A DNA stretch of 43,276 nucleotides from a bacterium (lineage in GTDB: Bacteria > CAIJMQ01), in contig JAGLSL010000034.1 in NCBI GenBank assembly GCA_023135785.1, positions 1 through 43,276 on the forward strand, in the 5' to 3' direction. This document shows, one piece after another, positions 125 to 41,741 of this stretch (the first letter of the stretch is position 1; each line of letters starts with the position of its first letter). The notes under the pieces are model-generated. The model was not told the DNA's origin. It was given only the letters and a program-made list of their open reading frames with translations, and did no database searches. A program made the translations under genes and the position numbers.

Positions 125-206
125 GGAGGGGTACTCAAGCGGTCAACGAGGGCAGACTGTAAATCTGCTGGCTATGCCTTCGAGGGTTCGAATCCTTCTC
201 TCCCCA
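125..206 (+). tRNA. tRNA-Tyr (anticodon GTA), class II with long variable arm
   Basis: Hand-folded cloverleaf: acceptor GGAGGGG, anticodon loop CTGTAAA, variable arm TGGCTATGCCTTC, T-arm GAGGG-TTCGAAT-CCTTC. No CCA is encoded. My acceptor fold has one A-C mismatch and two G-T pairs, so the ends are +/-2 nt. Confidence 0.85.
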
Positions 207-213
207 CTAAAAG

Positions 214-291
214 TAGTTTATGGTTGATGGTATATAGTTAATAGTAAAAGATTAAGAGAAAAGGAAATGATAAACTATTAACCATAAACTA
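214..291. repeat. 12-bp inverted repeat TAGTTTATGGTT (214-225) / AACCATAAACTA (280-291) enclosing the tRNA-Tyr to tRNA-Gly spacer
   Basis: Exact reverse complements read directly. The same 12-mer AACCATAAACTA recurs at 18241-18252. Confidence 0.9.
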
Positions 292-310
292 TAGACTATC
301 GACTAGTTGC

Positions 311-381
311 GCGGGTGTAGCACAATGGTAGTGTCGCAGCCTTCCAAGCTGTCTATGGCGGTTCGATCCCGCTCACCCGCT
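311..381 (+). tRNA. tRNA-Gly (anticodon TCC)
   Basis: Acceptor GCGGGTG/CACCCGC is perfectly paired. Anticodon stem-loop GCAGC-CTTCCAA-GCTGT, T-loop GGTTCGATCC, discriminator T, no encoded CCA. Confidence 0.92.
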
Positions 382-430
382 CTTATATAGATTGAGGATT
401 CAATTTATTTGTGTAGTCATAATTAAAAAC

Positions 431-458
431 TTGACATATATTATTATTTTAGTATAAT
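431..458 (+). promoter_or_regulatory. near-consensus sigma70 promoter upstream of tRNA-Thr and tuf
   Basis: TTGACA (431-436), 16-nt spacer, TATAAT (453-458). It lies 15 nt upstream of tRNA-Thr. Confidence 0.7.
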
Positions 459-472
459 AAAACGCTTTTTTT

Positions 473-545
473 GCTACTGTAGCTCAGTTGGCAGAGCGCA
501 TCCTTGGTAAGGATGAGGTCACCGGTTCGATCCCGGTCAGTAGCT
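473..545 (+). tRNA. tRNA-Thr (anticodon GGT)
   Basis: Acceptor GCTACTG/CAGTAGC is perfect. D-loop AGCTCAGTTGGCAGAGC, anticodon stem-loop GCATC-CTTGGTAA-GGATG, T-loop GGTTCGATCC. Confidence 0.92.
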
Positions 546-6284: not shown

Positions 6285-6713
6285 ATGCCTCTTATTCCTA
6301 AAAGAATCAAATATAGAAAAAGACATAAGGGCCGCATAAAAGGTAAGAGTTCAAGGGGTACCGTGTTGACGCATGGCGAATATGGAATTAAAGTTGTTGA
6401 AGTGGGTATAATCACTTCTAAACAAATGGAAGCTGCAAGGTTGGCTATAGCTCGAACTATTAAGAAGGGCGGCAAAATATTTTTTAAAATTTCAACGGAT
6501 AAGCCGATTACAAAAAAACCATTGGAAACAAGAATGGGAAAAGGAAAAGGAGAAGTTGCAATGTGGGTTGCTCCGATTCAACCTGGCAGAATAATACTGG
6601 AAATTGAAGGAATTTCTGAAGATATTGCAATGAAAGCTTTAAAAGTTGCTTGTGATAAGTTGCCATTTCAGACTAAAATAGTTTCTCGTCACAAACTTGG
6701 AGTTTCACAATGA
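6285..6713 (+). CDS. rplP: 50S ribosomal protein L16
   Basis: MPLIPKRIKYRK.HKGR...ETRMGKGKG motif. Confidence 0.98.
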   Translation: MPLIPKRIKYRKRHKGRIKGKSSRGTVLTHGEYGIKVVEVGIITSKQMEAARLAIARTIKKGGKIFFKISTDKPITKKPLETRMGKGKGEVAMWVAPIQPGRIILEIEGISEDIAMKALKVACDKLPFQTKIVSRHKLGVSQ

Positions 6714-7211: not shown

Positions 7212-7573
7212 TTGGTTTAGCCTCTAGATTAGACGTTGCAGACAATACCGGAGCAAAAAGAGTTTATTGTTTTCAGGTATTAAGTGGTAAAAAGAAATTT
7301 GCTACTGTTGGCGATATTATAACAGCGTCGGTAAAAGAAATAGGTGTTGGCGGTAGTATTAAGAAAGGCGAAGTTGTGAGAGCTGTTGTTGTAAGAGTAA
7401 AAAAAGAAATAAAACGAAATGACGGGACATATATAAGATTTGACAGAAATTCGGTAGTGTTGATTGATAAAACTAATAACCCAATAGGGACACGTATTTT
7501 TGGTCCTGTTCCTAGAGAATTGAGAGAGAAAAATTTTACAAAAATAGTATCTCTTGCTCCCGAAGTGGTATAA
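7208..7573 (+). CDS. rplN: 50S ribosomal protein L14
   Basis: [17 protein letters not shown]... and IRFD.NSVVLID are typical L14. Confidence 0.97.
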
Positions 7574-9738: not shown

Positions 9739-9757
9739 ACAGAAAACAGACGACAGA
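9739..9757. repeat. 19-mer ACAGAAAACAGACGACAGA, copy 1 (rplF-rplR spacer)
   Basis: Exact 19-nt match to 16847-16865. It is embedded in a CAGA/CGAC word tract (9735-9775) followed by the complementary words TGTCTTCTG and CATCTG. Confidence 0.9.
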
Positions 9758-9804
9758 GAACAGAAAAAACGACTGACATCTGTCTTCTGGCATCTGATAA
9801 TATT

Positions 9805-16491: not shown

Positions 16492-16878
16492 ATGAGACAT
16501 ATTAATAAAAAAAGAAAACTTGGGATGAAGGCGTCTCGAAGAAAATCTGTTTTAAAAAATTTATTCACCTCGCTTCTTGCTTACGGTGAAGTAAAAACGA
16601 CAGAAATAAGAGGCAAAGAATTAGTGAGAGTTGGCAATAGTCTTATAGAAAAAGCGAAAAAGAGTGATTTAGCTTCCCGCAGAAAAGTTTCATCGCATAT
16701 TACCAAAGACACGGTTTCCATAAACTTTTTTCAAGAAATCTTGCCAAAATTGGCTAATCGTACAGGCGGGTATCTTAGATTGTTTAGAGTGGGTATTCGA
16801 AAAGGTGATGGAGCTAAAGTAGTAATGGTGCAGCTGATTACAGACGACAGAAAACAGACGACAGAAGACAGACGATAA
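16492..16878 (+). CDS. rplQ: 50S ribosomal protein L17
   Basis: MRHINKKRKLG...RK..L.NL...L......TT..R.KEL motif. Last gene of the alpha operon. The last ~11 codons (DDRKQTTEDRR) are encoded by the CAGACGACAGA word repeat. Confidence 0.95.
   Translation: MRHINKKRKLGMKASRRKSVLKNLFTSLLAYGEVKTTEIRGKELVRVGNSLIEKAKKSDLASRRKVSSHITKDTVSINFFQEILPKLANRTGGYLRLFRVGIRKGDGAKVVMVQLITDDRKQTTEDRR
16847..16865. repeat. 19-mer ACAGAAAACAGACGACAGA, copy 2 (inside the rplQ 3' end)
   Basis: Exact match to 9739-9757. The word tract continues to about 16910 and is followed by complementary TCTG words and TTTTT (16907-16937). Confidence 0.9.
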
Positions 16879-16943
16879 GAAGACAGAAAATAAACGACAA
16901 GAAAAATCTGTAGTCTGATTTCTGACCTCTGACTTTTTATATC

Positions 16944-18182
16944 TTGAAGATGAGCATCAAAGTTATAAATGACAAATGCACAGGCTGTAGATTGTGTCTT
17001 AGTGTCTGCCCCGTTAATGCAATCGAAATCAAAGATAAACCTGCCCGCCATTACTACGAAGGCGGGCAAGCCCGCCAGAGTAGTAGTGGCGGGAAAGCTG
17101 TAATCCTTCCAAACTGCACATTTTGCGGTGTCTGCGTAGACGCATGTAAATTTAACGCTATCGTTATTACAAAAGAAGAAAAAAAAGCAAAAGAAGGATA
17201 TAAAGGCGTTTGGGTGTTTGCCGAAAGAAAAGGCGATGCGCTTCATGGTGTAGGTATAGAACTCTTATCCTGCGGCAGAGATATAGCAAACAAATTAGGT
17301 GTTGAGTTGGTATCAGTTCTTGCTGGCGATCATTCCCAAGACGATGCTCAAAAACTTATTTATTATGGTGCAGATAAAGTTTTTATAATAAAAGATTCAA
17401 AATTAAATACAGCCGAAATAGGATTTTTAACTAAAGCATTCTCCGATTTGGCAGAAAGAGAAAAACCTGAAGTTATCCTTTTTGGAGCAACCTCGTTAGG
17501 TAGGTCATTAGCTCCTCGCATTGCAGGACGTCTCAATACGGGACTTACAGCCGATTGCACAGAACTTGATGTAGATATTGATAAAAAACTCTTGCTCCAA
17601 ACACGCCCGGCTTTCGGCGGAAACATAATGGCTACGATCATAACTCCCGCAATGAGACCGCAGATGGCTACAGTTCGTCCAAAAGTAATGAAGAAACCCG
17701 AATTGGACAAAACAAGAAAAGGCGAAATAATAACGATAACCCCCTTGCTTGATGCAAAAGACCAACTTACAAAAATACTGCAAACCATAAGAGAAGAAAA
17801 AGATGTAGTTGATTTACAGGAGGCAGATATAATTGTTTCTGGCGGAAGAGGAATAGGTAAAAAAGAAAACTTTGTTCTTATACAAGAACTTGCAAAGATT
17901 TTAGGCGGCGCAGTTGGCGCATCAAGAGCAACTGTTGACGCGGGATGGATTCCTTCTTATCATCAAGTCGGACAAACGGGCAAAACTGTTCAATCCAAAC
18001 TCTATATTGCTTGCGGCATTTCAGGCGCTATTCAACACCAAGTAGGCATGCGTTCATCAGATATAATAATAGCAATCAACAAAGACCCCGAAGCTCCCAT
18101 CTTTGACATTGCAACCTATGGTATAGTCGGTGATCTCTTCGAAATAATTCCTGCTTTAATAAAACAACTCAAGAAACGATAG
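16944..18182 (+). CDS. electron transfer flavoprotein alpha subunit (EtfA/FixB-like) fused to an N-terminal 2x[4Fe-4S] ferredoxin domain
   Basis: CTGCRLCLSVCP and CTFCGVCVDAC cluster motifs, then an ETF alpha core (GGRGIG..ENF, GASRA.VDAGW....QVGQTGK.V.P.LYIA.GISGAIQH). No etfB lies adjacent. Confidence 0.88.
   Translation: MKMSIKVINDKCTGCRLCLSVCPVNAIEIKDKPARHYYEGGQARQSSSGGKAVILPNCTFCGVCVDACKFNAIVITKEEKKAKEGYKGVWVFAERKGDALHGVGIELLSCGRDIANKLGVELVSVLAGDHSQDDAQKLIYYGADKVFIIKDSKLNTAEIGFLTKAFSDLAEREKPEVILFGATSLGRSLAPRIAGRLNTGLTADCTELDVDIDKKLLLQTRPAFGGNIMATIITPAMRPQMATVRPKVMKKPELDKTRKGEIITITPLLDAKDQLTKILQTIREEKDVVDLQEADIIVSGGRGIGKKENFVLIQELAKILGGAVGASRATVDAGWIPSYHQVGQTGKTVQSKLYIACGISGAIQHQVGMRSSDIIIAINKDPEAPIFDIATYGIVGDLFEIIPALIKQLKKR
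17040..17093. repeat. 54-nt GC-rich tandem double hairpin inserted in frame within the EtfA ferredoxin domain
   Basis: GCCCGCC-ATTACTACGAA-GGCGGGC, AA, then GCCCGCC-AGAGTAGTAGT-GGCGGG. 36/54 G+C inside AT-rich coding sequence. It encodes PARHYYEGGQARQSSSGG. The arm GGCGGGCAAG (17061-17070) is the reverse complement of CTTGCCCGCC at 34938-34947. Confidence 0.85.
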
Positions 18183-25339: not shown

Positions 25340-25447
25340 AAATTCTATTAAAGATTAGTTTTGGTCATTGAATAAATCTTAAATTTTGAATCTTGAATAT
25401 TTGATGTTATTTTACTTTCCTTACCGCTATATTTCAAATTATAGAGT

Positions 25448-25476
25448 TTGACAGAAAAAGTGCAGAGTAGTATAAA
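25448..25476 (+). promoter_or_regulatory. sigma70-like promoter upstream of the small two-gene module
   Basis: TTGACA (25448-25453), 17 nt, TATAAA (25471-25476). A second extended -10 (TGGTATAAT, 25524-25532) lies 35 nt before the ATG. Confidence 0.5.
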
Positions 25477-25566
25477 TAATCTCAAGTATTGTAGTAATTA
25501 CGGTGTTTGATAGATTGTTTAGGTGGTATAATACAAAATACATATTAAGCAGGACAGAATGAACAA

Positions 25567-25803
25567 ATGAAATATACGCAATATTTTCTCCATACAAGAC
25601 AAAGGCCTGACAGAGCACGCATAAAAGATGAATGGATTGATTTTGCTATTAAGAATCCTGTGAAAACAGAAATACAATCCGATAGGCGAATAAGAAAATG
25701 GGCAAAAATTGAAGACGAAGGAAAATATTTGCGTGTTATATTACTTGAAGACGGAGAAACAATTCACAATGCTTTCTTTGATAGAGAATTTAAGGAGGTG
25801 TAA
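25567..25803 (+). CDS. small DUF4258-like protein (putative toxin partner of DUF2283)
   Basis: 78 aa, 4 nt upstream of a DUF2283-like gene. The family call rests on the pairing and general resemblance and is uncertain. Confidence 0.4.
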   Translation: MKYTQYFLHTRQRPDRARIKDEWIDFAIKNPVKTEIQSDRRIRKWAKIEDEGKYLRVILLEDGETIHNAFFDREFKEV

Positions 25804-25806
25804 ACT

Positions 25807-26016
25807 ATGAAAATAAAATATTTTAATGATACTGATACCGCTTTAGTGGAATTTACAGAAAACTTGGTAAAAAATACCAGGGAAATATCGGAAAATGTAT
25901 CTATTGATATTGATGAAAAAGGCAATCTTGTTAGCATGACTATTGAACACGCAAAAAAGACAGCACATTTGCCCGATATCTATTACCAACAAATAGAAGA
26001 AAAAGTTGCTGTGTAA
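25807..26016 (+). CDS. DUF2283 family protein (putative antitoxin-like)
   Basis: MKIKYFNDTDTALVEF......SIDIDEKGNLVSMTIEHA matches the DUF2283 pattern (Y-D-x-D-x-L, then d-G-x-l-v-g-i-e-i). Confidence 0.6.
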   Translation: MKIKYFNDTDTALVEFTENLVKNTREISENVSIDIDEKGNLVSMTIEHAKKTAHLPDIYYQQIEEKVAV

Positions 26017-26132
26017 CAACTATCGTTGAACCTACTTATCACTACGCTGTCCTTCCCTCTTTATTTCAAATTACTGTATTTGACAGAGAAAAATTGGGAG
26101 AGATAAAATCGGTCAAAATTTAGAAAATTTTC

Positions 26133-26161
26133 TTGACATTCTGAAACTTATGTCGTACTAT
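26133..26161 (+). promoter_or_regulatory. sigma70-like promoter of the riboswitch leader
   Basis: TTGACA (26133-26138), 17-nt spacer, TACTAT (26156-26161). Confidence 0.6.
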
Positions 26162-26184
26162 GCATTTTTAATTTAGTTTAAACG

Positions 26185-26353
26185 TATTAGGTTCCTGAAG
26201 AATCTTCAGGACGAAAAGGGAAACCCGTGCAAATCGGGTGCAGTCCCGCTACTGTGAAAGGGGACGAAATCCACGAAAAGCCACTGTTCCAATAGTCGGA
26301 ATGGGAAGGTGTGGAGAGTAGGAAGATCCTATAGCCAGAAGACCTGCCTAATA
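26185..26353 (+). promoter_or_regulatory. cobalamin (B12) riboswitch aptamer
   Basis: P1 TATTAGG/CCTAATA. Conserved core AAAAGGGAAACCCGTGCAAATCGGGTGCAGTCCCGCTACTGT, GCCACTG...GGAATGGGAAGG, and B12 box AGCCAGAAGACCTGCC (26333-26348). Confidence 0.9.
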
Positions 26354-26416
26354 TGATAGAAGCTATTTGGTTAAATAGTTTTTATCCTCGCGGAAGGATG
26401 AAGTAAACCAGGGTGC

Positions 26417-26457
26417 AATCCTTAAGTTCTGAAAAGAGAGCTTAAGGATTTTTTTTA
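26417..26457 (+). terminator. intrinsic terminator (riboswitch expression platform)
   Basis: Perfect 10-bp stem AATCCTTAAG/CTTAAGGATT with a 14-nt loop, followed by TTTTTTTT. Upstream GGAAGGAT could form the competing anti-terminator. Confidence 0.8.
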
Positions 26458-26488
26458 TTTCCAGGGCTCAGGAAGGAAAGCCGGTCGA

Positions 26489-27268
26489 ATGTTAAAAAGC
26501 GGGAAGAGAAAAGCTTTTACTCTCGTAGAGTTGTTGGTAGTAATGACCATAATAGCGGTTTTATCTTCCCTGTTGTTGCCGGCATTAATCAAGACCAGGG
26601 AAATGGCCAGGCGGGTGGTTTGCCTTTCTAATCTTCGCCAGATACACATTGCGGCAAAGGTATATGCGAATAGTTACGATGGTTATTATCCGCCGGCTTA
26701 TTGGTTTGATCCTCCCCCTTTGTCTTTTTATGATCGCCCCCGCTTCTGCACAACTTATGCCTGGGACTTTACCACTATAACGGATACAGTCACAGGCGAG
26801 AAACAAGTTATCCCCGGCATATTATGGCAGGAGGCAGGAGATATGAAAATTCAGCAATGTCCCTCGTTTACAGGTGCGGCTAATTGGCTTAGTGATCCCT
26901 ATACCGGCTATAACTATAATACTAGCTATATTGGACATGGCTATCTTGAAAGCATTCCGGAGCCGGCGCGGACTACTGATGTAAAGTCGCCTTCCACTTG
27001 CGCCCTGTTTGGGGATGGCGAATATGGGGGCGGAGCAAACAAATTTATGCGGGCGCCCTGGCCTAATCCGGGTGATGCCAACTTTTCTAATGCCGGCAGA
27101 TACGCCGGAACACAGGGTTACCGGCATATGGGTTATACCAACGTGGTTTACTGTGACGGACATGCGGAGTCCGTACGTGAATGTTATTCTGAAACCAGTA
27201 AAAAGGAGAAGGTGGCCCCCGGAACCGGTTTTCTTTCGCCTGATAATAGTGCTTATGATTTGAAATGA
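26489..27268 (+). CDS. prepilin-type N-terminal cleavage/methylation domain protein of the DUF1559 / H-X9-DG family
   Basis: [26 protein letters not shown] leader/helix, [15 protein letters not shown] segment, and H-X9-DG motif [12 protein letters not shown] near the C-terminus. 259 aa. Confidence 0.85.
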
Positions 27269-27300
27269 ACCGGGAAAAGTGAAAAAAGGAGAATAAGCTA

Positions 27301-29469
27301 ATGCAAACTTACGCTTATGGTTTTCCCAGATTGGGGAAAAAGAGGGAATATAAGAAAATTATAGAAAGTTTCTGGAGTAAAGAAATCAAGGAAGGAGAGC
27401 TTCGGGAAAGCATTGGCAGCCTGGAAAAGGAAAGACTGACAACTTATGAAAGATATGTAGATAAGTTTCCGGCAGGGGAGATGACCTTTTACGATCACAT
27501 GCTGGATACAGCTTTAATGCTGGGTTTGTATAAGTGCAAAGATTTAGATGCATATTACAATTTGTGCAGGGGCAAGGATGCCCTGGGATTAAGCAAATGG
27601 TTTAATACTAATTATCATTATCTTATTCCCCGGTTCAGCCAATCATTTAGCCCCTCCGAATTTAAGGCAGTTTGGAATAAACCCCGGGAGGCCGGGCAAT
27701 TATACCGGAAAGGTATTCCTTATTTAATAGGACCTTTCACTTTTTTAAAATTGTCCAGGGGAATTAATCCGGAGAGGTTAGGGGAATATCTTTTACCTTT
27801 GGCGGATGCCTATGTTGAATTGATTAAAGATTTTCCTGAAGTGCATATAGATGAACCTGCCTTTGCAATGGAGCTTTCCAGAAAAGAAATTGAGTGGATT
27901 AAGCAGATTTACTACCGGCTGGGTTCTCAAAATCCTCACATCAACCTCTTTACTTATTATGACTCCGTAGATTTTTTGCAGGATCTATATGAGTTACCCG
28001 TAAAGGCAATAGGGCTGGATTTTGTCAATGGCAAAGAAAACTTAGCAAATATTAGAAAGTATGGTTTTCCGAAAGAGAAGACCTTGATTGCCGGCATAGT
28101 AAACGGTAGAAATGTCTGGAGAGTTAATATTAGCAAAAGGGTGGAATTTTTAAGAGAGCTATCCCGCTATGCAGAAGATTTGGTTATTTCCAATGCCGCG
28201 CCGCTTTACCATTTACCAATAACAATAGAAACCGAGCAATTAGATGAGAGGTTATTAAAGAAGATTGCTTTTGCTGAAGAGAGACTGGCTGAGTTAAAGC
28301 TAATTGCTCAAGTCTATGAAGGCAAGAAGCAAGAAATAAAAGATAAGGGTGAAATTGCGGGCTTTGGCGCAAATCCCAAAGTTCAGGAAAGAATTAAAAA
28401 TCTAAAAGACGAGGATTTTAAAAAGGCTGTTTTTTATGATGAGCGGATTAAAAAGCAAAAGAAGATTTTAGCTCTTCCTCTTTTTCCTACCACTACCATA
28501 GGCAGTTTTCCCCAAACTCAAGAAGTCAGGAAAAAAAGAGCGGATTTTAAATCAGGTAAAATTCCAGAAAGGGAATATACGACTTTTATTAAAGAAGAGA
28601 TTACTAAGTTGATAATACTTCAGGAAAATTTAGGTTTGGATGTATTAGTGCATGGAGAATTTGAAAGGACAGATATGGTGGAATTTTTTGCCCAGGAATT
28701 GGACGGGATTGCCACCACCAAAAATGGATGGATTATTTCTTACGGCACCAGGGGCTATAGGCCGCCGATAATTTTTGGTGATATTTCACGACCAAAGCCT
28801 ATGACTCTTAATGAGATTAGTTTTGCCCAGAGTCTGACCGAGAGACCTGTCAAGGGGATGTTAACAGGATCGGTTACTATAATTGCCTGGAGTTTTGTCA
28901 GGGACGATATCCCAATTTCTGAGGTTGCTTATCAGCTGTCTCTATGTTTGCAGGATGAGATAAGAGATTACGAGAAAGCAGGTATCAAGATTGCCCAGAT
29001 TGATGAACCGGCCTTTAGAGAAAAAGCGCCGCTTAAAAAAAGAAACAGGGATAGTTATTTTGATTGGGCAGTAAAATCATTTAATTTAGCTTCTCGGGCA
29101 AAACCTGAAACACAAATCCATACCCATATGTGCTATTCGGAATTCGGAGAGATTATTGAATATATTCTCAAAATGGATTTTGATGTGATTACTATTGAGG
29201 CCTCAAGAAGTAAAGGCGATATTATAAAGTATTTCCAGAATGTAAATTTTAAAAGGCAGATAGGGCTGGGTGTCTGGGATATCCACTCACCGGCCATTCC
29301 GGACGTTAAAGATATGACAAAGATTGTAGAGAGAGCTCTGGGAGTGTTCTCAGAAGAAAACTTCTGGATAAATCCGGACTGTGGATTAAAAACAAGAGAT
29401 TGGCCGGAAACAAAAGCTGCGTTAAAAAATTTAGTGGCGGTAGCTAAGAAAACAAGGAAGTCATCCTAA
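27301..29469 (+). CDS. metE: cobalamin-independent methionine synthase
   Basis: 722 aa, two-domain MetE. N-terminal GFPRLGKKREYKK, C-terminal IGSFPQT, IQIDEPA, HMCYSEF and DCGLKTR zinc-site motifs. Confidence 0.96.
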   Translation: MQTYAYGFPRLGKKREYKKIIESFWSKEIKEGELRESIGSLEKERLTTYERYVDKFPAGEMTFYDHMLDTALMLGLYKCKDLDAYYNLCRGKDALGLSKWFNTNYHYLIPRFSQSFSPSEFKAVWNKPREAGQLYRKGIPYLIGPFTFLKLSRGINPERLGEYLLPLADAYVELIKDFPEVHIDEPAFAMELSRKEIEWIKQIYYRLGSQNPHINLFTYYDSVDFLQDLYELPVKAIGLDFVNGKENLANIRKYGFPKEKTLIAGIVNGRNVWRVNISKRVEFLRELSRYAEDLVISNAAPLYHLPITIETEQLDERLLKKIAFAEERLAELKLIAQVYEGKKQEIKDKGEIAGFGANPKVQERIKNLKDEDFKKAVFYDERIKKQKKILALPLFPTTTIGSFPQTQEVRKKRADFKSGKIPEREYTTFIKEEITKLIILQENLGLDVLVHGEFERTDMVEFFAQELDGIATTKNGWIISYGTRGYRPPIIFGDISRPKPMTLNEISFAQSLTERPVKGMLTGSVTIIAWSFVRDDIPISEVAYQLSLCLQDEIRDYEKAGIKIAQIDEPAFREKAPLKKRNRDSYFDWAVKSFNLASRAKPETQIHTHMCYSEFGEIIEYILKMDFDVITIEASRSKGDIIKYFQNVNFKRQIGLGVWDIHSPAIPDVKDMTKIVERALGVFSEENFWINPDCGLKTRDWPETKAALKNLVAVAKKTRKSS

Positions 29470-29495
29470 AGTGTTTTGAGGGAGTTTAAGAATAT

Positions 29496-29801
29496 ATGCA
29501 AACCGGTAAAATGGATAGCATGCAATTTGAATTTTTTCTTGATAGTATTTATGAAAGCCTTTCTCAGGAGGACTTCTCCGTTACCGAGCACAATCTTAAG
29601 ACAGCTCTTCAGTTTGGCTATAGCGTAGATGACCTTTTTGAAATAGTCTTATGCGATTTCATGAAAAGGATTAAGAATGACTTTTCTACTGTGTTAATGA
29701 AATTAGATGCCTTAAATAATACTGTGAGAATATTAGAATATTTAGGAGGTTTACATAAAAACATAGAAGGAGGAACTAAAAGATGCCCCGGGCTGAATTA
29801 A
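29496..29801 (+). CDS. hypothetical 101-aa helical protein between metE and thyX
   Basis: ORF with a possible RBS (GAGGGAG). It overlaps the thyX start by 19 nt. No secure family assignment. Confidence 0.45.
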   Translation: MQTGKMDSMQFEFFLDSIYESLSQEDFSVTEHNLKTALQFGYSVDDLFEIVLCDFMKRIKNDFSTVLMKLDALNNTVRILEYLGGLHKNIEGGTKRCPGLN

Positions 29802-30529
29802 ACGTAAAACTTTTGGATGTAACGCAGGACGCAGTTTCTATTATCTACGCTGCCTGTAGGCAATGCTATTCTGCTAAATTTGTCGTTGATATCCTAAAAG
29901 AGCAGAAAGGAAATTTGGAAAAGCAGATAGTGTTTGTTAAAAAAGTTGTTGAATCCGGGCACGAAAGCCCATTGGAACACGTAAAGTTCACTTTTGCCAT
30001 AGAGGGTGTATCACGGGCTTTAACGCATCAGCTTGTCCGGCACCGGATGGCTTCTTATTCCCAGCAAAGTCAAAGATATGTGATAGAAAAAGATTTTAAT
30101 TACATAATCCCGGCCTCAATTGAGAGAGATGAAACCCTGAAAAGTGAATTTATAGGAGTTATGGGAGAGATTCAGCAAAGTTACCACCGGATACTAAGAA
30201 AGCTGGAAGAAAATGGTATTGTAGGGGAGAAAGCAAACCAGGATGTCCGATTTATTTTACCTCAGGCGGTAGAGACAAAGATTGTGGTAACAATGAACTG
30301 CAGGGAGCTTCTGCATTTCTTTAAACAAAGATGCTGTGTCAGGGCGCAATGGGAAATCAGAAACCTGGCAAACAAAATGCTGGAAATGTGCCGCAGCCAT
30401 CTCCCGGCGGTATTTTCCCATGCTGGAGCGAAATGCGAAAGCTTAGGTTATTGCCCTGAAGGTGAGAAATTTACCTGCGGTAAGTATCCTCGGAAAGAGG
30501 AAGCCATTAAAAGAAAAAAACTGCAATGA
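29783..30529 (+). CDS. thyX: flavin-dependent thymidylate synthase
   Basis: ThyX motif [14 protein letters not shown], plus [21 protein letters not shown]. Confidence 0.95.
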
Positions 30530-30963
30530 CTTTGTTCCAAAAAAGGCTCAAAAAAGGAAGAGCTTTTACTCTCGTAGAGTTGTTGGTAGTAATGACCATA
30601 ATAGCGGTTTTGTCTTCCCTAATGCTGCCGGCATTAATCAGGGCCAGGGAAATGGCCAGGCAGGCTAACTGTATATCCAATTTACGGCAAATTCATTTGG
30701 CGGTGCAGATGTATGTTCAGGATTGGGAAGGCTGGTATCCGCCGGTCGCCGCCGATATTCTCGGCAAACAGCTTCATCGCTGGCATGGAACCAGGTCGAC
30801 AATGGGGCAGCCTTTTGACCCTGCCGGGGGACCGATATATCCATATCTCCGGACTGGTGAAATAAAAATGTGCCCCTCATTTGTAGAGTATCTTCAAAAA
30901 GGCGGTGGCGCCTTTGAGTTAGGTTGCGGCGGTTATGGTTATAACGGTCAGTATGTAAAATAA
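30526..30963 (+). pseudogene. truncated DUF1559 pseudopilin paralog (lacks the H-X9-DG C-terminal half)
   Basis: The N-terminus is near-identical to 26489..27268 ([41 protein letters not shown]). ATGA-coupled to thyX. The ORF stops at 145 aa, and its stop codon (30961-30963) overlaps the first two bases of the left 27-bp inverted repeat of the RAYT element (30962). Confidence 0.75.
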
Positions 30964-31707
30964 TCGGGGGACACAATACCTATTTCTCTTGACAAATGTA
31001 GCTTGAACAGTTAAAACCTATCTATGTCAAGGATAGCAAGAGTAGTTGTTCCTGAATATCCTCATCATATAATTCAAAGAGGCAACCGCAGGCAAAAGGT
31101 ATTCTTTAATGAAGGTGACTATGAAGAATATCTTAGATTACTAAATAACTATTCGCTTCGGTTTAAAGTAGATATTCTATCCTACTGTTTAATGCCCAAC
31201 CATATACATCTTATAGCAACTCCTCATGAAGATGGAAGCTTAGCCCAAGCCATAGGTGAAACTCACCGTAATTACACAAGATTCATTAATTTTAGGGAAA
31301 AATGGCGGGGGTATCTATGGCAAGGAAGATTCTCGTCATATGTTCTTGATGAAGGCTACTTATTAGCTGCAGTCCGCTATATACTTTTAAATCCTGTGAA
31401 AGCAGGAATAGTAAAGAAACCATGGGACTATAAGTGGTCAAGCACACAGCATCATATGAAGATTAAGAACAACCCTTTGATAAAAGATACTCTCTTGAGA
31501 GAACTCATAGAAAATTGGCAAGATTTTCTTAGTATAACGGCAGACGATGATGATAACATTAAGTTGTTACAATTACATGAAAGAACAGGACGGCCATTAG
31601 GAGATAATACATTTATAGAAAAACTGGAATCTCTTCTTAAGATAAGGCTTAAAAAGAAGAGAGCCGGGCGCAGGAAGAAGGAGAAATAGGTATTGTGTCC
31701 CCCGATT
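30962..31707 (+). mobile_element. 746-bp element: HUH/Y1 transposase gene bounded by 27-bp perfect inverted repeats (RAYT/REP-like)
   Basis: AATCGGGGGACACAATACCTATTTCTC (30962-30988) is the exact reverse complement of 31681-31707. The right repeat overlaps the transposase stop codon. Confidence 0.85.
31024..31689 (+). CDS. REP-associated tyrosine transposase-like (IS200/Y1_Tnp family, HUH endonuclease)
   Basis: HUH motif MPNHIHLI, catalytic-Tyr helix AAVRYILLNPVKAGIV, and the N-terminal PHHIIQRGNRRQ typical of this family. 221 aa. Confidence 0.85.
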   Translation: MSRIARVVVPEYPHHIIQRGNRRQKVFFNEGDYEEYLRLLNNYSLRFKVDILSYCLMPNHIHLIATPHEDGSLAQAIGETHRNYTRFINFREKWRGYLWQGRFSSYVLDEGYLLAAVRYILLNPVKAGIVKKPWDYKWSSTQHHMKIKNNPLIKDTLLRELIENWQDFLSITADDDDNIKLLQLHERTGRPLGDNTFIEKLESLLKIRLKKKRAGRRKKEK

Positions 31708-31763
31708 CCACCCCGATTCCCTTCCTGTCCGATTCCCTGATTCTGCTGATTCTCCCTGATTCT
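31702..31763. repeat. degenerate stutter of six GATTC-core words (3x CCGATTCC, 3x CTGATTCT)
   Basis: Units at 31702, 31713, 31729, 31737, 31746 and 31756. The first unit overlaps the outer end (CCCCCGATT) of the right inverted repeat. Confidence 0.85.
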
Positions 31764-31930
31764 TGTAGCTCTTGTGATCGAAGGATTAAATGAAATCATT
31801 GGAGTATAATAATGCAATTCAGTGGATGTCGTATAAGCGCTGGCGCAAAAATATAAATATTTTTGATTTCCATGTATATACAACACCACTGAACTTAACT
31901 GTTATGATTGATTAAAATGAAAGGATTGGG

Positions 31931-32128
31931 ATGAAATTAAATAGAAATGCTGTTAAGTTATCTCAAATGAAATATATTATTGACGATGACTATGTTGATG
32001 CCTCAACTAAGGAGTGCTTAGAAATGATGTGGGATATTGCTATGGAGCTATGGTTTATATCAAAAAAAGGAGAATTAAGTGCTAAATCAAGATTACAAAG
32101 AAATGTTGGAAGTCTTAAAAGAGCATGA
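31931..32128 (+). CDS. hypothetical small helical protein overlapping the downstream nucleotidyltransferase-fold gene
   Basis: 65-aa ORF whose 3' end overlaps the next ORF by 50 nt (26 nt if that ORF starts at ATG 32103). No family assigned. Confidence 0.35.
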   Translation: MKLNRNAVKLSQMKYIIDDDYVDASTKECLEMMWDIAMELWFISKKGELSAKSRLQRNVGSLKRA

Positions 32129-32537
32129 TGTTGATTTTATTCTTGTGGGAGCATATGCCTTAGCTGCTCAGGGGTATCCGCGAGGCACGCTTGATATCGA
32201 TATTTGGGTTGCTCCGACCGAAATTAACTCCAAAAAGACATATAAAGCATTAGCAAAGTTTGGCGCGCCTCTCAATGATATCAATGAAGATACATTTAAA
32301 GAAAAAGGGGTTATTTTTCAAATTGGTGTTGCCCCATGCAGAATTGACATCATCACTGAAATATCTGGAGAAATAGAATTTGAAGACGCAAAAAAAAGAT
32401 CCGATCAAGTTGAAATTGAAGGGATATCCCCAAATATATTGTCCATCGAGGACTTAATAAAAAACAAGGAATCAACTGGGAGACCAAAGGATATCGAAGA
32501 TGCGACAAATTTACGAAAACATAAGAAAAAATCGTAA
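32079..32537 (+). CDS. minimal nucleotidyltransferase-fold protein (start GTG 32079 or ATG 32103)
   Basis: VDFILVGAYALAAQGYPRGTLDIDIWV (hG-x-n-DxD NTase signature) and C-terminal SIEDLIKNKESTGRPKDIEDA. Confidence 0.65.
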   Translation: MLNQDYKEMLEVLKEHDVDFILVGAYALAAQGYPRGTLDIDIWVAPTEINSKKTYKALAKFGAPLNDINEDTFKEKGVIFQIGVAPCRIDIITEISGEIEFEDAKKRSDQVEIEGISPNILSIEDLIKNKESTGRPKDIEDATNLRKHKKKS

Positions 32538-32547
32538 CAGATCAATC

Positions 32548-32580
32548 CAGCGAATGGCAAAAAGCGCCATTGCTGATTTT
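32548..32580 (+). terminator. possible intrinsic terminator after the NTase-fold gene
   Basis: CAGCGAATGGC-AAAAAGC-GCCATTGCTG (10 bp, one bulge) followed by ATTTT. Confidence 0.45.
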
Positions 32581-32600
32581 AGCCGTTCGGGAGGAAGGAT

Positions 32601-33095
32601 ATGAAACGAATACTAATCATTGCGCTCGGTCTCACGCTGTTTTCTTCGTCTATCTCCATGGCCGGAAATGAGCAGTTCCCTCCGCCGGAGTTGGTCGGAA
32701 CGTGGACTGGAACCGTAGAAATCTTTGGTTCCTTTAAGGTAGAGCCTTACCCAAGCAAGGCGCCCGAGGACCATCAGCAGGTTGTTATCACTATCCATGC
32801 CGACGGAACAGTCATTGGCAAGATTGGGAATGCTGAATTCAAGAACTCTTCGGTTAGCAAGAACCGCGGATGGATAGGCAGAAAGCTAAAGGTGAAGACC
32901 GACTATATTGTTTCAGGGGGAACCATTCAAGGCAAGGTAACCCCCAACGACAACGGGACGAACAGCAAGTTCACCATTCCATTCAATATTAAAGACGGGA
33001 CATTCAAAGGCACAATCATGCTTCTTCCTAAGTTTCCATTAACCCGACCGTTGCAGTTAACAAAACAGAAAGAGAATTCCGAACAAAGAAAATGA
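32601..33095 (+). CDS. hypothetical secreted/lipoprotein-like beta-rich protein, compositionally GC-rich
   Basis: Signal peptide MKRILIIALGLTLFSSSISMA. A sampled 60-nt line (32641-32700) has 33 G+C, against 20/60 in a ribosomal-gene line (7441-7500). Confidence 0.6.
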   Translation: MKRILIIALGLTLFSSSISMAGNEQFPPPELVGTWTGTVEIFGSFKVEPYPSKAPEDHQQVVITIHADGTVIGKIGNAEFKNSSVSKNRGWIGRKLKVKTDYIVSGGTIQGKVTPNDNGTNSKFTIPFNIKDGTFKGTIMLLPKFPLTRPLQLTKQKENSEQRK

Positions 33096-33167
33096 GAGGT
33101 ACGCAGAACCTGCTATCGCGGATTCCGCGCTCCCTCATTTTCGGCGTTAGGTGAAAGAATAATAGAT

Positions 33168-34211
33168 ATGAACAAAAAAATTGCTTTTTTTGACACAAAA
33201 CCTTATGACCAAAAATCATTTGAAGAAGTTAACAGAAATTTTGGGTTTGATATAACTTATTTTGAAACGCATCTTAACCAACATACTGTCGAGTTATCGA
33301 ATAATTTTGATGCTGTCTGCGCTTTTGTGAATGATTCATTAGACAAAAAAGTTATTGAACATTTCGTAAATCATAAAATTCGAATAATTGCGATGCGATG
33401 CGCAGGATATAATAACGTAGATTTCAAGACAGCATATGGGAAAATACATGTTGTACGGGTTCCTGCTTACTCCCCATATGCTGTAGCAGAGCATGCTGTT
33501 GCGCTCATTCTAGCGCTAAACCGCAAAATCCATAAAGCATATCACCGAACCCGTGATGGAAACTTCTCAATTAATGGTCTCTTGGGTTTTGACATGTATG
33601 GCAAAACTGCCGGTATCATCGGTACAGGTAAAATTGGGAAATGTCTTGTTTCTATATTAAAGGGTTTTGGAATGAATATTCTTGCATATGACATTCATGC
33701 AGATCACGAATATGCAAAAAAAACCAATATTCGATATGTCGCTCTAGATGAATTATATAAAAAATCAGATATTATTTCTCTTCACTGCCCGCTTACAAAA
33801 GATACAGAACATATGATAGATGCCAAGGCCATTGATCATATGAAAAACGGCGTAATGATAATAAATACAGGTCGGGGTAAACTTGTCAATACACAAGCCT
33901 TGATAAACGACCTTAAATCAGGCAAAATCGGATCAGCCGGACTTGATGTATACGAAGAAGAAAGCGACTATTTCTTTGAAGATAAATCAACAGAACTTAT
34001 AATTGACGATACGCTTGCGCGTTTACTTACCTTTCCAAATGTATTGATCACTTCTCATCAGGCTTTTTTTACTCAGGAAGCGATTCATAATATAGCATAC
34101 ACTACGCTTAGCAATTTAAAAGAATTTTTTGATGGTGGATATCTCAAAAATGAGATATGTTATAAATGTGAGAAGCCTTGTTTAAAAAAACAAAAGAAAC
34201 GTTGTTTTTAA
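33168..34211 (+). CDS. ldhA: D-isomer-specific 2-hydroxyacid dehydrogenase, D-lactate dehydrogenase-like
   Basis: NAD fold GIIGTGKIG and catalytic-region motifs (R..GKLV, GLDVYEEE, ITSHQAF). 347 aa with a Cys-rich tail CYKCEKPC..8..C. Confidence 0.85.
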   Translation: MNKKIAFFDTKPYDQKSFEEVNRNFGFDITYFETHLNQHTVELSNNFDAVCAFVNDSLDKKVIEHFVNHKIRIIAMRCAGYNNVDFKTAYGKIHVVRVPAYSPYAVAEHAVALILALNRKIHKAYHRTRDGNFSINGLLGFDMYGKTAGIIGTGKIGKCLVSILKGFGMNILAYDIHADHEYAKKTNIRYVALDELYKKSDIISLHCPLTKDTEHMIDAKAIDHMKNGVMIINTGRGKLVNTQALINDLKSGKIGSAGLDVYEEESDYFFEDKSTELIIDDTLARLLTFPNVLITSHQAFFTQEAIHNIAYTTLSNLKEFFDGGYLKNEICYKCEKPCLKKQKKRCF

Positions 34212-34309
34212 AAATCACCTAACAATTAGTTCCAGCTGACTGTAAAACTGCGCTTTTCGGCAGGTGAGTTCTAACGTTAAAACAATAAAACAAGTAAAAG
34301 GGGGTAAGA

Positions 34310-34765
34310 ATGCTTGCGAAAAAATTTGCTTTGGGCTTTGGAATAGCAATAGTTCTCCCAATGATGATCCATTATGGCGTCAGCACCTTTGTAACTGAAC
34401 CTAAATGGGATGATTACCAAGTAAAGAATTATTATCAACGCTATAAACATGGAACGCCAGAGGAGAAAAAGGCATTAGAAGCAGAAAAAGGCCGATTAGA
34501 CGAACAATACAAAAAGGAAGAAGAACAATTTCAGAAAAATTTATTTTTTGTAGCTGTTCCCTTGGGAATAATTGCTATCATTGTCGGTTCTTTCCTCTCA
34601 GTTCAAGCAACAGGCACTGGTCTTATGTTCGGTGGAATATTTAGCATATGTGACGGCTATATAAACTACTGGTCAGAATTAAGCGATGCCTTGAAATTTC
34701 TCTCGTTATTAGTTGCCTTTATCGTTTTATTGTTTGTTGGTTACAAGAAACTTGAAAAAAAGTAG
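34310..34765 (+). CDS. hypothetical membrane protein (3-4 TM with a charged loop)
   Basis: 151-aa ORF with RBS GGGGGTAAG and hydrophobic segments flanking an EEKKALEAEKGRLDEQYKKEEEQ loop. Confidence 0.55.
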   Translation: MLAKKFALGFGIAIVLPMMIHYGVSTFVTEPKWDDYQVKNYYQRYKHGTPEEKKALEAEKGRLDEQYKKEEEQFQKNLFFVAVPLGIIAIIVGSFLSVQATGTGLMFGGIFSICDGYINYWSELSDALKFLSLLVAFIVLLFVGYKKLEKK

Positions 34766-34805
34766 AAAAATAGAAAACAAGGACAGCTGTTTATTTTTAA
34801 AAGAC

Positions 34806-34835
34806 GAGATTGCTTCGTTTTTGACTCGCAATGAC
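34806..34835. repeat. structured repeat family, half copy B: GAGATTGCTTCG-TTTTTGAC-TCGCAATGAC
   Basis: It shares the right-half consensus (GAGATTGC..TTCG..TCGCAATGAC) with copies A and C. The left arm is missing. Confidence 0.75.
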
Positions 34836-34871
34836 AGAAACTTTTTGTTTGGAATTTTGGTTATTGTTTGC

Positions 34872-34900
34872 CCTCTGGAATTTCTTTGAAATTCCAGAGG
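34872..34900. repeat. 13-bp perfect hairpin CCTCTGGAATTTC-TTT-GAAATTCCAGAGG
   Basis: Read directly. It lies in the spacer between a convergent gene pair. Confidence 0.9.
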
Positions 34901-34937
34901 ATTTAATCCCCGCAATCTTTCAGACTGTAGGGGATAT

Positions 34938-34974
34938 CTTGCCCGCCTGCCATTCGGTTGCGGGCAGGTTTCTT
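34938..34974 (+). terminator. GC-rich hairpin plus T-tract, member of the CTTGCCCGCC/GGCGGGCAAG hairpin family
   Basis: CTTGCCCGC-(13-nt loop)-GCGGGCAGG followed by TTTCTT. The arm sequence is shared with the in-frame insert at 17040-17093. Confidence 0.55.
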
Positions 34975-35030
34975 GGTGTTTGGTTATTAACCATTTTGCA
35001 TTTTGACTTTTACATTTTGAATTGTTTTTA

Positions 35031-35792
35031 TCATTTCCCCCATCTTCTTTGTCTTGCATGATATTCCGCAATCGCTTCGTATAATTTTTCTTTACTCAAG
35101 TCGGGCCAGAATTCGGGGATGATTACAATTTCGGTATATGCCATTTGCCAGAGCAGGTAATTAGAGATGCGGAAATCTCCTCCGGTTCGTATTAGAAGGT
35201 CGGGGTCGGGTAGCCCTGCGGTATATAAATTTTCCGAAATGGTTTCTTCATTTACCCCGCCCTTCGCTTCAGTATTAGATTCTTTATTTTTAGGAAGGGC
35301 GGGGTCTACTTTTTTAATATCTTTATTTTCTAATATTTTATTGACTGCATCTACTATTTCTTTTCTACCGCCGTAATTTACAGCGAGGTTTACGACCATC
35401 TTGTCGTTATTCTTCGTGGTTTCTTCTGCATAATCTATGGCTTTTTTGAGATTTCCTTCAAGCTCATGGATTCTTCCTATAAATCTTACTTTGATATTTT
35501 TTGAATGGAAATAGTCTATTTTTTTCTTAAGAAAATTTGCACCAAACTTCATTATGAAATTTACTTCTTTCTCTTTTCTCTTCCAGTTTTCTGTGGAAAA
35601 AATATAAAAGGTGAGCACGGGTATTCCCAGTTGGAGGCAATCTTCAATTACTCTAAGGACAGTGTCGCTGCCTTTTTTATGTCCCTGGGTTGAGAGGAGT
35701 TTATTTTTTTTAGCCCATCTGCGGTTGCCGTCAACGATAAATGCGATGTGTTGAGGAAGTTTGGTTTTATCTAAATCTATTTTTTGAGTCAT
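35031..35792 (-). CDS. uppS: undecaprenyl (isoprenyl) diphosphate synthase
   Basis: HIAFIVDGNRRWA, FSTENWKR and RTGGDFRISNYLLWQ.AYTE motifs. Start set at ATG 35792 (MTQKIDL...) rather than the upstream GTG. Confidence 0.93.
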   Translation of the reverse strand: MTQKIDLDKTKLPQHIAFIVDGNRRWAKKNKLLSTQGHKKGSDTVLRVIEDCLQLGIPVLTFYIFSTENWKRKEKEVNFIMKFGANFLKKKIDYFHSKNIKVRFIGRIHELEGNLKKAIDYAEETTKNNDKMVVNLAVNYGGRKEIVDAVNKILENKDIKKVDPALPKNKESNTEAKGGVNEETISENLYTAGLPDPDLLIRTGGDFRISNYLLWQMAYTEIVIIPEFWPDLSKEKLYEAIAEYHARQRRWGK

Positions 35793-41502: not shown

Positions 41503-41581
41503 TTGAAACGTAGTTTCAATCATCCCGCGAAGTATTGGGAAAATATCGTAGAAATTTTCCCGATGGTTTACGCCGCGGGAT
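41500..41581. repeat. hairpin cluster: 10-bp hairpin over the stop codon plus a nested 8+8-bp hairpin
   Basis: TGATTGAAAC-GTA-GTTTCAATCA (41500-41522). ATCCCGCG...CGCGGGAT (41522-41529 / 41574-41581) encloses GGGAAAAT-ATCGTAGAA-ATTTTCCC. Confidence 0.85.
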
Positions 41582-41615: not shown

Positions 41616-41741
41616 GTCATTGCGATGGTCCGATGACTCCGAAAGGACGGAGTATACGGACTCTTCGGAGAGTGATAGCGACCGAAGCAATCTTGTATTT
41701 TGGGATTGCCACGCTCTCACAAGGTTCGGGCTCGCAATGAC
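41616..41741. repeat. structured repeat family copy C (126 nt, with an internal insertion)
   Basis: GTCATTGCGA (41616-41625) ... CGACCGAAGCAATCT (41679-41693) ... GATTGC ... TTCGGGC TCGCAATGAC (41732-41741). The arms and inner motifs match copy A. Confidence 0.88.

Follow-up and report, generated by a model that had tools for sequence, protein, structure and literature searches.

The stretch of DNA analysed here, 43,276 nucleotides of contig JAGLSL010000034.1 (GenBank assembly GCA_023135785.1, positions 1 to 43,276 of the forward strand; GTDB lineage Bacteria; CAIJMQ01) and hereafter called the window, contains a gene for the alpha subunit of an electron-transfer flavoprotein with a ferredoxin domain at its N terminus (Fd-EtfA). 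This gene is interrupted in frame by a 54-nt GC-rich palindromic block, E1. The results indicate, with a probability of about 0.78, that E1 is a copy of a dispersed repeat, inserted in the Fd-EtfA gene in the form of an inverted dimer. The repeat is a short GC-rich palindrome resembling repetitive extragenic palindromic (REP) sequences. The gene and the parts of E1 are the following.

16950..18182, plus strand: Fd-EtfA host gene, encoding a flavoprotein alpha subunit whose N terminus carries a 2x[4Fe-4S] ferredoxin domain (Pfam ETF, ETF_alpha, Fer4).
17040..17093, plus strand: E1, 54-nt GC-rich palindromic block read as an in-frame insertion, encoding PARHYYEGGQARQSSSGG (residues 31-48).
17043..17067, plus strand: hairpin unit 1 of E1, GCCCGCC-ATTACTACGAA-GGCGGGC, the best match to the family model R1 (40.2 bits).
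17070..17093, plus strand: hairpin unit 2 of E1, GCCCGCC-AGAGTAGTAGT-GGCGGG, an inverted copy of unit 1.

A preliminary description of the window had reported an in-frame block at 17040-17093 with 36/54 G+C, and the letters found there (CCTGCCCGCCATTACTACGAAGGCGGGCAAGCCCGCCAGAGTAGTAGTGGCGGG) are as quoted; the G+C content of the host gene outside E1 is 39.6%. The 76 nt around E1 folded at -40.4 kcal/mol compared to -18.45 ± 2.86 kcal/mol for dinucleotide shuffles (z = -7.67), and none of 200 shuffles folded as well. E1 was also the most stable 60-nt segment of the 43 kb (mean over all such segments -7.9, standard deviation 4.1), the runner-up reaching -27.8. The pattern GCCCGCC-N(5-30)-GGCGGGC occurred once in the window versus zero expected. 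The block had been described as two tandem hairpins. The palindromic arms are present, but the minimum-energy fold is a single nested hairpin, in which an outer stem of 14 bp encloses an inner one of 6 bp. This fold results from the two hairpin loops being reverse complements of each other. By manual count the two units are identical at 20/25 positions with one of them reverse-complemented and at 14/25 in direct comparison, the direct matches being confined to the arms. E1 is better called an inverted dimer giving one long hairpin than a double hairpin.

The EtfA of the window matched over its full length CarE of the caffeyl-CoA reductase-Etf complex (PDB 6FAH_A, E 2e-114). The gene order rpoA-rplQ-etfA is conserved in close-clade relatives, with fic usually next. 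The two cluster motifs are 34 residues apart, the value originally given, versus 16 in the closest relative. In an AlphaFold2 model built from a 27-sequence alignment (mean predicted local distance difference test score, pLDDT, 82.9), residues 31-45 had a pLDDT below 50 and were located between strands 25-28 and 49-52. The model places the E1 peptide in a low-confidence surface loop at the tip of a beta-hairpin between the cluster motifs, the location that the structural modeling proposed earlier was meant to examine. A homologous insert in distant orthologs would have been a contrary sign. Elusimicrobia and other distant lineages do have a conserved 12-residue insert (SREE.GKPHPRFKK) at the same turn; it is a different peptide, and its DNA gave no folding signal, scoring no better than shuffles. 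Since distant lineages carry an unrelated insert at this position, the turn tolerates insertions. In none of the close Omnitrophota loci is an etfB partner adjacent to the Fd-EtfA gene. The database call of the window protein (P0001, 396 aa) begins 14 codons late, and its Pfam matches to Fer4 are only faint.

In order to evaluate E1 as an insertion, the protein was compared with Fd-EtfA homologs of uncultured Omnitrophota and neighbouring phyla. The closest genome was the Omnitrophota metagenome-assembled genome JAHJCU010000003.1 (L024), to which a metagenome contig (L088) is identical. In the ribosomal operon upstream of etfA, L024 and the window share 96.8% DNA identity (8,769 ungapped sites), and their EtfA proteins are 97% identical. 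At the E1 site, L024 and L088 read GAC AAA|AAA GCT with the two lysine codons directly joined. At least ten further EtfA orthologs (79-92% identity) also lack E1 and read K-D-K-K-A-V-I, and the alignment with CarE showed an 18-residue gap exactly at E1, all of which bears out the lineage-specific insert suspected at the outset. Shorter versions were found at the same codon boundary in two genomes less closely related to the window, one of 42 nt in L001 (CCTGCCCGCCAAGATTTGGCAGGCGGGGGTTCTAAAGGTGGA, encoding PARQDLAGGGSKGG) and one of 27 nt in L004 (CCTGCCCGCCAAGGTGGTAAAGGCGGG, encoding PARQGGKGG), so that all three lengths, 54, 42 and 27 nt, are divisible by three. The three versions share an identical left end of 11 nt (11/11), while the flanks diverge right up to the junction and the genomes themselves are 71-78% identical. 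The tails of the three inserts can be aligned (11/16 and 10/14 matches, manual count). The boundaries of E1, AAA|CCT...GGG|AAA, have no flanking microhomology. These comparisons identify 17040-17093, as judged from the aligned sequences, as an insertion present in some close relatives and missing in others.

The search for further carriers was negative on two counts: alignment of the insert region (42-51 aa) against the protein database yielded 7 candidates, none of them significant, and a metagenome scan with the clade-specific N-terminal alignment yielded 3 close loci and no new carrier of E1. E1 itself was seen in a single public record. An assembly artefact is unlikely, given that the intergenic relative of E1 and a second in-frame hairpin, E2, both described below, were found again in three independent assemblies (L100-L102). 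Divergence between the window and L024 is elevated around E1, at 5 differences in 44 nt, but the patch is too small to interpret.

It had also been proposed that the hairpin family of E1 occurs both inside a gene and between genes, based on a 10-nt arm shared with an intergenic hairpin at 34938-34968. The match proved more extensive than that. On the minus strand this hairpin reads AAACCTGCCCGC-N-GGCGGGCAAG, with both ends identical to those of the first hairpin of E1 and the same length of 31 nt, and the search for other copies recovered intergenic as well as intragenic ones, in the window and in L001. The family core is CCTGCCCG-N(8-13)-GGCGGG in a unit of ∼27-31 nt, and units of 25-31 nt folded at -10.9 to -18.1 kcal/mol. 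Matches to CCTGCCCG-N(5-16)-GGCGGG numbered 2 in the window (E1 and 34938-34968) and 5 in the 21 kb of L001 (the etfA copy plus four intergenic copies), versus zero expected in each. The intergenic copies are listed below.

34938..34968, minus strand: intergenic family member 63 nt downstream of the uppS stop codon, in the sense orientation of uppS, CCTGCCCGCAACCGAATGGCAGGCGGGCAAG (36.2 bits).
L001, 5247: intergenic copy in the secY-adk spacer.
L001, 6356: intergenic copy in the infA-rpsM spacer.
L001, 7488: intergenic copy in the rpsK-rpsD spacer.
L001, 9812: intergenic copy 4 nt past the rplQ stop codon.

The L001 copies at 6356 and 7488 (CCTGCCCGACAATATTTGGCAGGCGGGGGTT) are identical at 29/31 positions, the GGTT tail included, to the etfA insert of the same genome (CCTGCCCGCCAAGATTTGGCAGGCGGGGGTT). 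The hairpin at 34938-34968 is conserved downstream of uppS in a relative (L097, 2134-2164). Another copy, GCCCGCC-N11-GGCGGGC, lies on the same contig as the window 14.5 kb beyond 34938-34968 (L101, 13986-14012), 5 nt after the stop codon of a peptidase gene; this one is a perfect palindrome to which no orientation can be assigned. Wherever the upstream gene was called, intergenic copies were located 4-74 nt past its stop codon, and every asymmetric copy is oriented as the gene that contains or precedes it. A covariance model, R1, was built from ten copies, which score 28-40 bits against it. The model recovered no further copies in 288 kb of Omnitrophota and other loci, and the census of the family therefore rests on exact-pattern matches. 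No copies were found in the 5-21 kb available of L024, L007, L008 and L010, and only the etfA copy was found in L004. Intrinsic terminators were also considered for these hairpins, and scans with the consensus of a GC stem, a 3-8 nt loop and a T run found none at E1, E2 or 34938-34968. Two of the L001 intergenic copies (6330-6400 and 7460-7530) sit within longer repeated flanks, CGGTTATAGGTTATC ... GGTTTGCGGTTATCG, and a spacer of L024 (19800-19830) contains a CGGTT-rich motif similar to them; together these may represent a larger composite repeat unit.

Listing every indel of at least 6 nt between the window and L024 revealed E2, which lies in frame in uppS.

35031..35792, minus strand: UppS, undecaprenyl-diphosphate synthase, host gene of E2 (PF01255 on homologs).
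35251..35304, minus strand: E2, 54-nt hairpin with a GC stem, in frame in uppS, D[PALPKNKESNTEAKGGVN]E in the coding sense, with the 12-bp stem ACCCCGCCCTTC/GAAGGGCGGGGT.

E2 is unrelated in sequence to E1, sharing only the CCCGCC core, and a 60-nt segment with E2 folded at -25.8 kcal/mol. The uppS gene of L024 lacks E2, just as its etfA gene lacks E1, and the flanks differ by 2 mismatches over ∼240 nt. The E2 peptide was present in four UppS lineages, namely the window, P0121 (93% identity), P0122 (90%) and P0125 (74%), and missing in ∼20 other homologs including P0123 (96%) and the L024 protein P0124 (94%). When the UppS of Micrococcus luteus (PDB 1F75) was aligned, a gap fell within the E2 segment. 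The E2 DNA of the window and that of L099 differ at ∼4/50 positions while the encoded proteins are 74% identical, and three lineages each have their own uncompensated mutation in the right arm. The sequences on either side of E2 are GTAGA and GTAAA in the window and GTTCA and GTAGA in L097, and GTAGA occurs once at the empty site of L024, a pattern that suggests a 5-nt target duplication. No other copies of E2 were found in the sequences compared. In L098 and L099, whose genes are only distantly related, E2 is accompanied by a 21-nt deletion in the left flank that removes KDIKKVD.

These results are best explained if E1 is a non-coding repeat that became part of a protein. The family would normally occupy intergenic spacers just past stop codons in this group of Omnitrophota genomes, and one copy would have entered exactly between codons 30 and 31 of Fd-EtfA, at the tip of the beta-hairpin turn that links the [4Fe-4S] cluster motifs. 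There it is predicted to be translated as a flexible Gly/Ser-rich surface loop of 18 residues, read-through being expected from a length divisible by three and from arms, CCN-GCC-C...GGC-GGG, that encode Pro-Ala...Gly-Gly without a stop codon. E1 would be a nearly neutral passenger, kept since the turn is permissive. The dimer may have originated by duplication of one unit in inverted orientation, or a second copy may have entered head-to-head, as in REP dimers and REPINs. The mechanism of insertion is the weakest part of the explanation. Insertion, and possibly seamless removal, by a single-strand transposase of the HUH/Y1 type acting in trans can be put forward only tentatively and with low probability; hairpin-driven replication errors may have inserted E1 instead.

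A gene for a Y1 (HUH) transposase of 221 aa is located on the same contig ∼6.8 kb past the end of the window (L101, 18343-19008). Its best NCBIfam match was to the REP-associated tyrosine transposase (RAYT) family NF047646 with 77.6 bits, the cutoff being 80; against IS200 it scored only 28.5 bits. The gene is flanked by inverted GGGGACAGACACC repeats (L101, 17685-17697, 18288-18300 and 19014-19026), consistent with GGGGWSAS, a motif described from the inverted repeats that surround 'TIRYT' genes (PMC3733652). A HEPN gene (pEK499_p136) is found just upstream of the transposase gene. As the GGGGACAGACACC repeats differ from the hairpin studied here, the link to the transposase is only a lead, and the RAYT-like gene is not supported as the cognate mobiliser.

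Several observations weigh against the explanation that E1 derives from a dispersed mobile repeat. To judge from its flanking repeats, the sole transposase seen is probably not cognate. E1 has neither a target-site duplication nor a GTAG or CGTC tag. The copy number is low, with 3-4 copies in ∼63 kb of the window genome and none in 21 kb of the closest relative. Short GC-rich arms could also converge by chance; an ordinary terminator of L004 has a CCCGCC/GGCGGG stem, and the bare stem motif is therefore not diagnostic. Translation and neutrality of the loop are predicted properties. Lastly, the three carriers are not monophyletic, each having a non-carrier as its nearest sampled neighbour. Both the EtfA tree and the operon tree joined the window to L024 (100% bootstrap) and L004 to L010 (100%), and placed L001 near L007 with weak support. 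Thus, either one nucleotide position was hit three times or an old insertion underwent three or more exact losses, and plain random insertion does not easily explain three hits, or several exact losses in the absence of microhomology.

A single ancient insertion, in the ancestor of a clade with at least 83% identity, is a possible though doubtful history for E1. Later events would have been the loss of 15 nt in L004, inverted duplication in the lineage of the window and exact deletion in most other lineages. The three carriers share the site and the PARQ/H...GG ends, and their alignable tails point to a single origin. The E2 loop is kept across lineages down to 74% amino acid identity, its right-arm mutations are those expected of an old decaying element, and the 5-nt repeat flanking it would permit exact loss by slippage. 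In etfA, however, at least three exact losses, of 54, 42 and 27 nt, would be required without any flanking direct repeat. An ancient origin also leaves unexplained the 29/31 identity between the L001 insert and intergenic copies of the same genome, when the genomes differ by ∼22-29%.

The opposite history, recurrent site-specific insertion or seamless excision at a preferred etfA boundary, similar to the 'peel and paste' transposition of IS200/IS605 and RAYT elements on single-stranded DNA, is also rather unlikely. Here the loop would be an on/off polymorphism, consistent with a species tree in which each of the three carriers forms a cherry of its own with a non-carrier. Each etfA copy resembles the intergenic copies of its own genome, by 29/31 in L001 and through the shared ends AAACCTGCCCGC and GGCGGGCAAG in the window, a resemblance that favours recent independent entry or gene conversion. 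The identical left ends next to flanks that differ up to the junction, the lack of a duplication or slippage microhomology at E1 and the RAYT-like gene on the contig are also in agreement with repeated entry. Only three carriers were sampled, however, and their left flanks (AAA, AAG, ATC, ACC) show no evident target motif. The homologous appearance of the insert tails would fit a single origin better, and the transposase is flanked by different repeats. A more far-reaching version, in which the hairpin family has a real target preference together with scar-free insertion and excision, for example by a single-strand HUH transposase, so that the etfA and uppS boundaries are repeatedly filled and emptied among Omnitrophota lineages, is still less to be expected.

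It is improbable that E1 is a structure selected in cis, acting as a ribosome pause between the cluster-binding halves, as mRNA protection or as a block to antisense transcription. Such a role would account for the extreme stability of the fold, for the rare GC-rich codons (GCC CGC) kept at synonymous sites in three lineages with diverged flanks and for intergenic relatives that are all oriented like the preceding genes. Against it, most orthologs lack E1, the closest relative included; no compensatory changes were seen and the arms of E2 decay; and E1, E2 and the intergenic copy fail the simple terminator consensus. The energies of sense and antisense folding showed no consistent difference, leaving an RNA-level orientation effect unsupported. 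The local formation of a palindrome de novo by template switching or slippage, unrelated to any dispersed repeat, is largely refuted and very improbable: strand-switch errors at a hairpin are expected to yield a near-perfect inverted duplication such as the window copy, and template switching may account for the dimer, but intergenic relatives of the unit, identical to it at up to 29/31 positions, occur in two genomes, and its source would be left unexplained. Programmed translational bypass of the T4 gene 60 type was also rejected, as the AAA codons flank the block but no stop codon follows the take-off codon, the 54, 42 and 27 nt versions are all in frame and open, and the next codon in L004 is GTG.

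REP sequences have been described as palindromes of 20-40 bp located mainly downstream of open reading frames (ORFs) and often paired in opposite orientation to form larger structures (PMC3733652). REP families are species-specific and vary between close relatives, and in several species some copies lie wholly inside ORFs (Di Nocera et al. 2013, PMC3733652). The family described here shares with REPs an imperfect GC-rich palindrome of 20-40 nt, an apparent dispersal downstream of genes, opposite-orientation pairing and intragenic copies that can be read through. It differs from the GTAG and CGTC superfamilies in having neither end: the left ends are AAACCTGCC / ATCCCTGCC and the right ends GGCGGGCAAG / GGCGGGGGTT, GTAG is present only within the loop of the window dimer, and neither CGTC nor GACG was found at either end of the aligned copies. 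The copy number also looks modest: the 21 kb of L001 contain 5 copies and the 63 kb read of the window genome 3-4, and the 21 kb of L024 yielded none. In the window copy, as in REPINs, two inverted units form one long hairpin, and a RAYT-like Y1 transposase is encoded on the contig; the spacer of E1 is 2 nt, versus tens of nt in REPINs. A REPtron would require the Y1_Tnp gene (L101, 18343-19008) to be flanked by the hairpin family, and it is flanked by GGGGACAGACACC instead. With these flanks the gene looks like a TIRYT or TIRtron in the sense of PMC3733652.

The preliminary description had compared E1 with the Rickettsia palindromic elements (RPEs), which are in-frame palindromic insertions of ∼100-150 bp with defined sequence families and conserved peptides (PMC10969869). 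The likeness holds for behaviour and not for family membership. The hairpins studied here are likewise found in frame in unrelated housekeeping genes, encode a fold-compatible peptide and occupy both coding and non-coding sites. The comparison does not extend to length, the unit being 27-31 nt and the dimer 54 nt, to the CGTC tag or to phylum. Miniature inverted-repeat transposable elements and terminator-like repeats such as SPRITE of pneumococcus (named in PMC10969869) offer another comparison. The family likewise comprises small non-autonomous inverted repeats, with an apparent 5-nt duplication at E2 and intergenic copies at terminator-like sites. E1, in contrast, has no duplication (AAA|AAA empty versus AAA[54]AAA filled), its arms are inverted repeats only trivially, and no parent insertion sequence with matching ends was seen in the ∼63 kb read. 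The MJRE repeats of Methanocaldococcus jannaschii, from the work of Suyama, Lathe and Bork in 2000, are reportedly short GC-rich palindromes in an AT-rich genome, a few of them within ORFs that remain unbroken. MJRE is archaeal, unlike the present family. Overall, the family consists of tag-less REP-like repeats of Omnitrophota with in-frame intragenic copies, which fall under neither the RPE nor the GTAG-REP definition. No paper was found that links Omnitrophota with REP- or RPE-like repeats. In-frame palindrome insertion thus has precedents in Rickettsia and in REP-bearing bacteria and is apparently undescribed for Omnitrophota.

Other features of the window were recorded. An AG-rich 14-nt tandem repeat, ACAGACGACAGAAG, is present in 3.4 copies at 16840-16905, across the 3' end of rplQ (L17 tail TDDRKQTTEDRR) and the rplQ-etfA spacer, and is followed by the partly complementary TCTGTAGTCTGATTTCTGACCTCTGAC. 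A block related to this repeat occupies 9745-9795 in the rplF-rplR spacer and forms an indel relative to L024. A 39-nt in-frame indel rich in Lys and Glu codons affects the C-terminal tail of ribosomal protein L15 (window 11220, L024 4310-4348). Upstream of a FecR-like gene, the spacer contains two strong hairpins (41522-41581 and 41616-41675). In one, which folded at -26.8 kcal/mol, an outer GC stem of 8 bp, ATCCCGCG/CGCGGGAT, surrounds an inner stem of 12 bp; the other folded at -23.6 kcal/mol, and neither gave a match in Rfam at the gathering threshold. Three tRNA genes are found at the start of the window (125-545, plus strand), and a cobalamin riboswitch (26172-26365, plus strand, 119 bits) is found upstream of the genes at 26489-29469. 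The region 25341-34993 contains ∼9.6 kb with no counterpart at the corresponding place in L024 (19791-20545), where an unrelated small gene is found. The operon of the cobalamin riboswitch lies in this region of the window, as does the gene upstream of the intergenic hairpin.

For annotators, the late start call and the faint ferredoxin-domain matches of this EtfA are a warning. The results extend in-frame palindrome insertion to Omnitrophota and provide a clean, comparatively dated case of a non-coding repeat turned into protein sequence, with a 96.8%-identical relative that lacks E1, matching intergenic copies and a known structural context. The non-monophyletic distribution of inserts at one nucleotide position bears on how REP-like elements move. 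If insertion and excision were indeed targeted and scar-free, a mobile element would be switching surface loops of proteins on and off, and these genomes would provide a natural system for studying the movement of REP-type elements in a phylum that has no cultured model.

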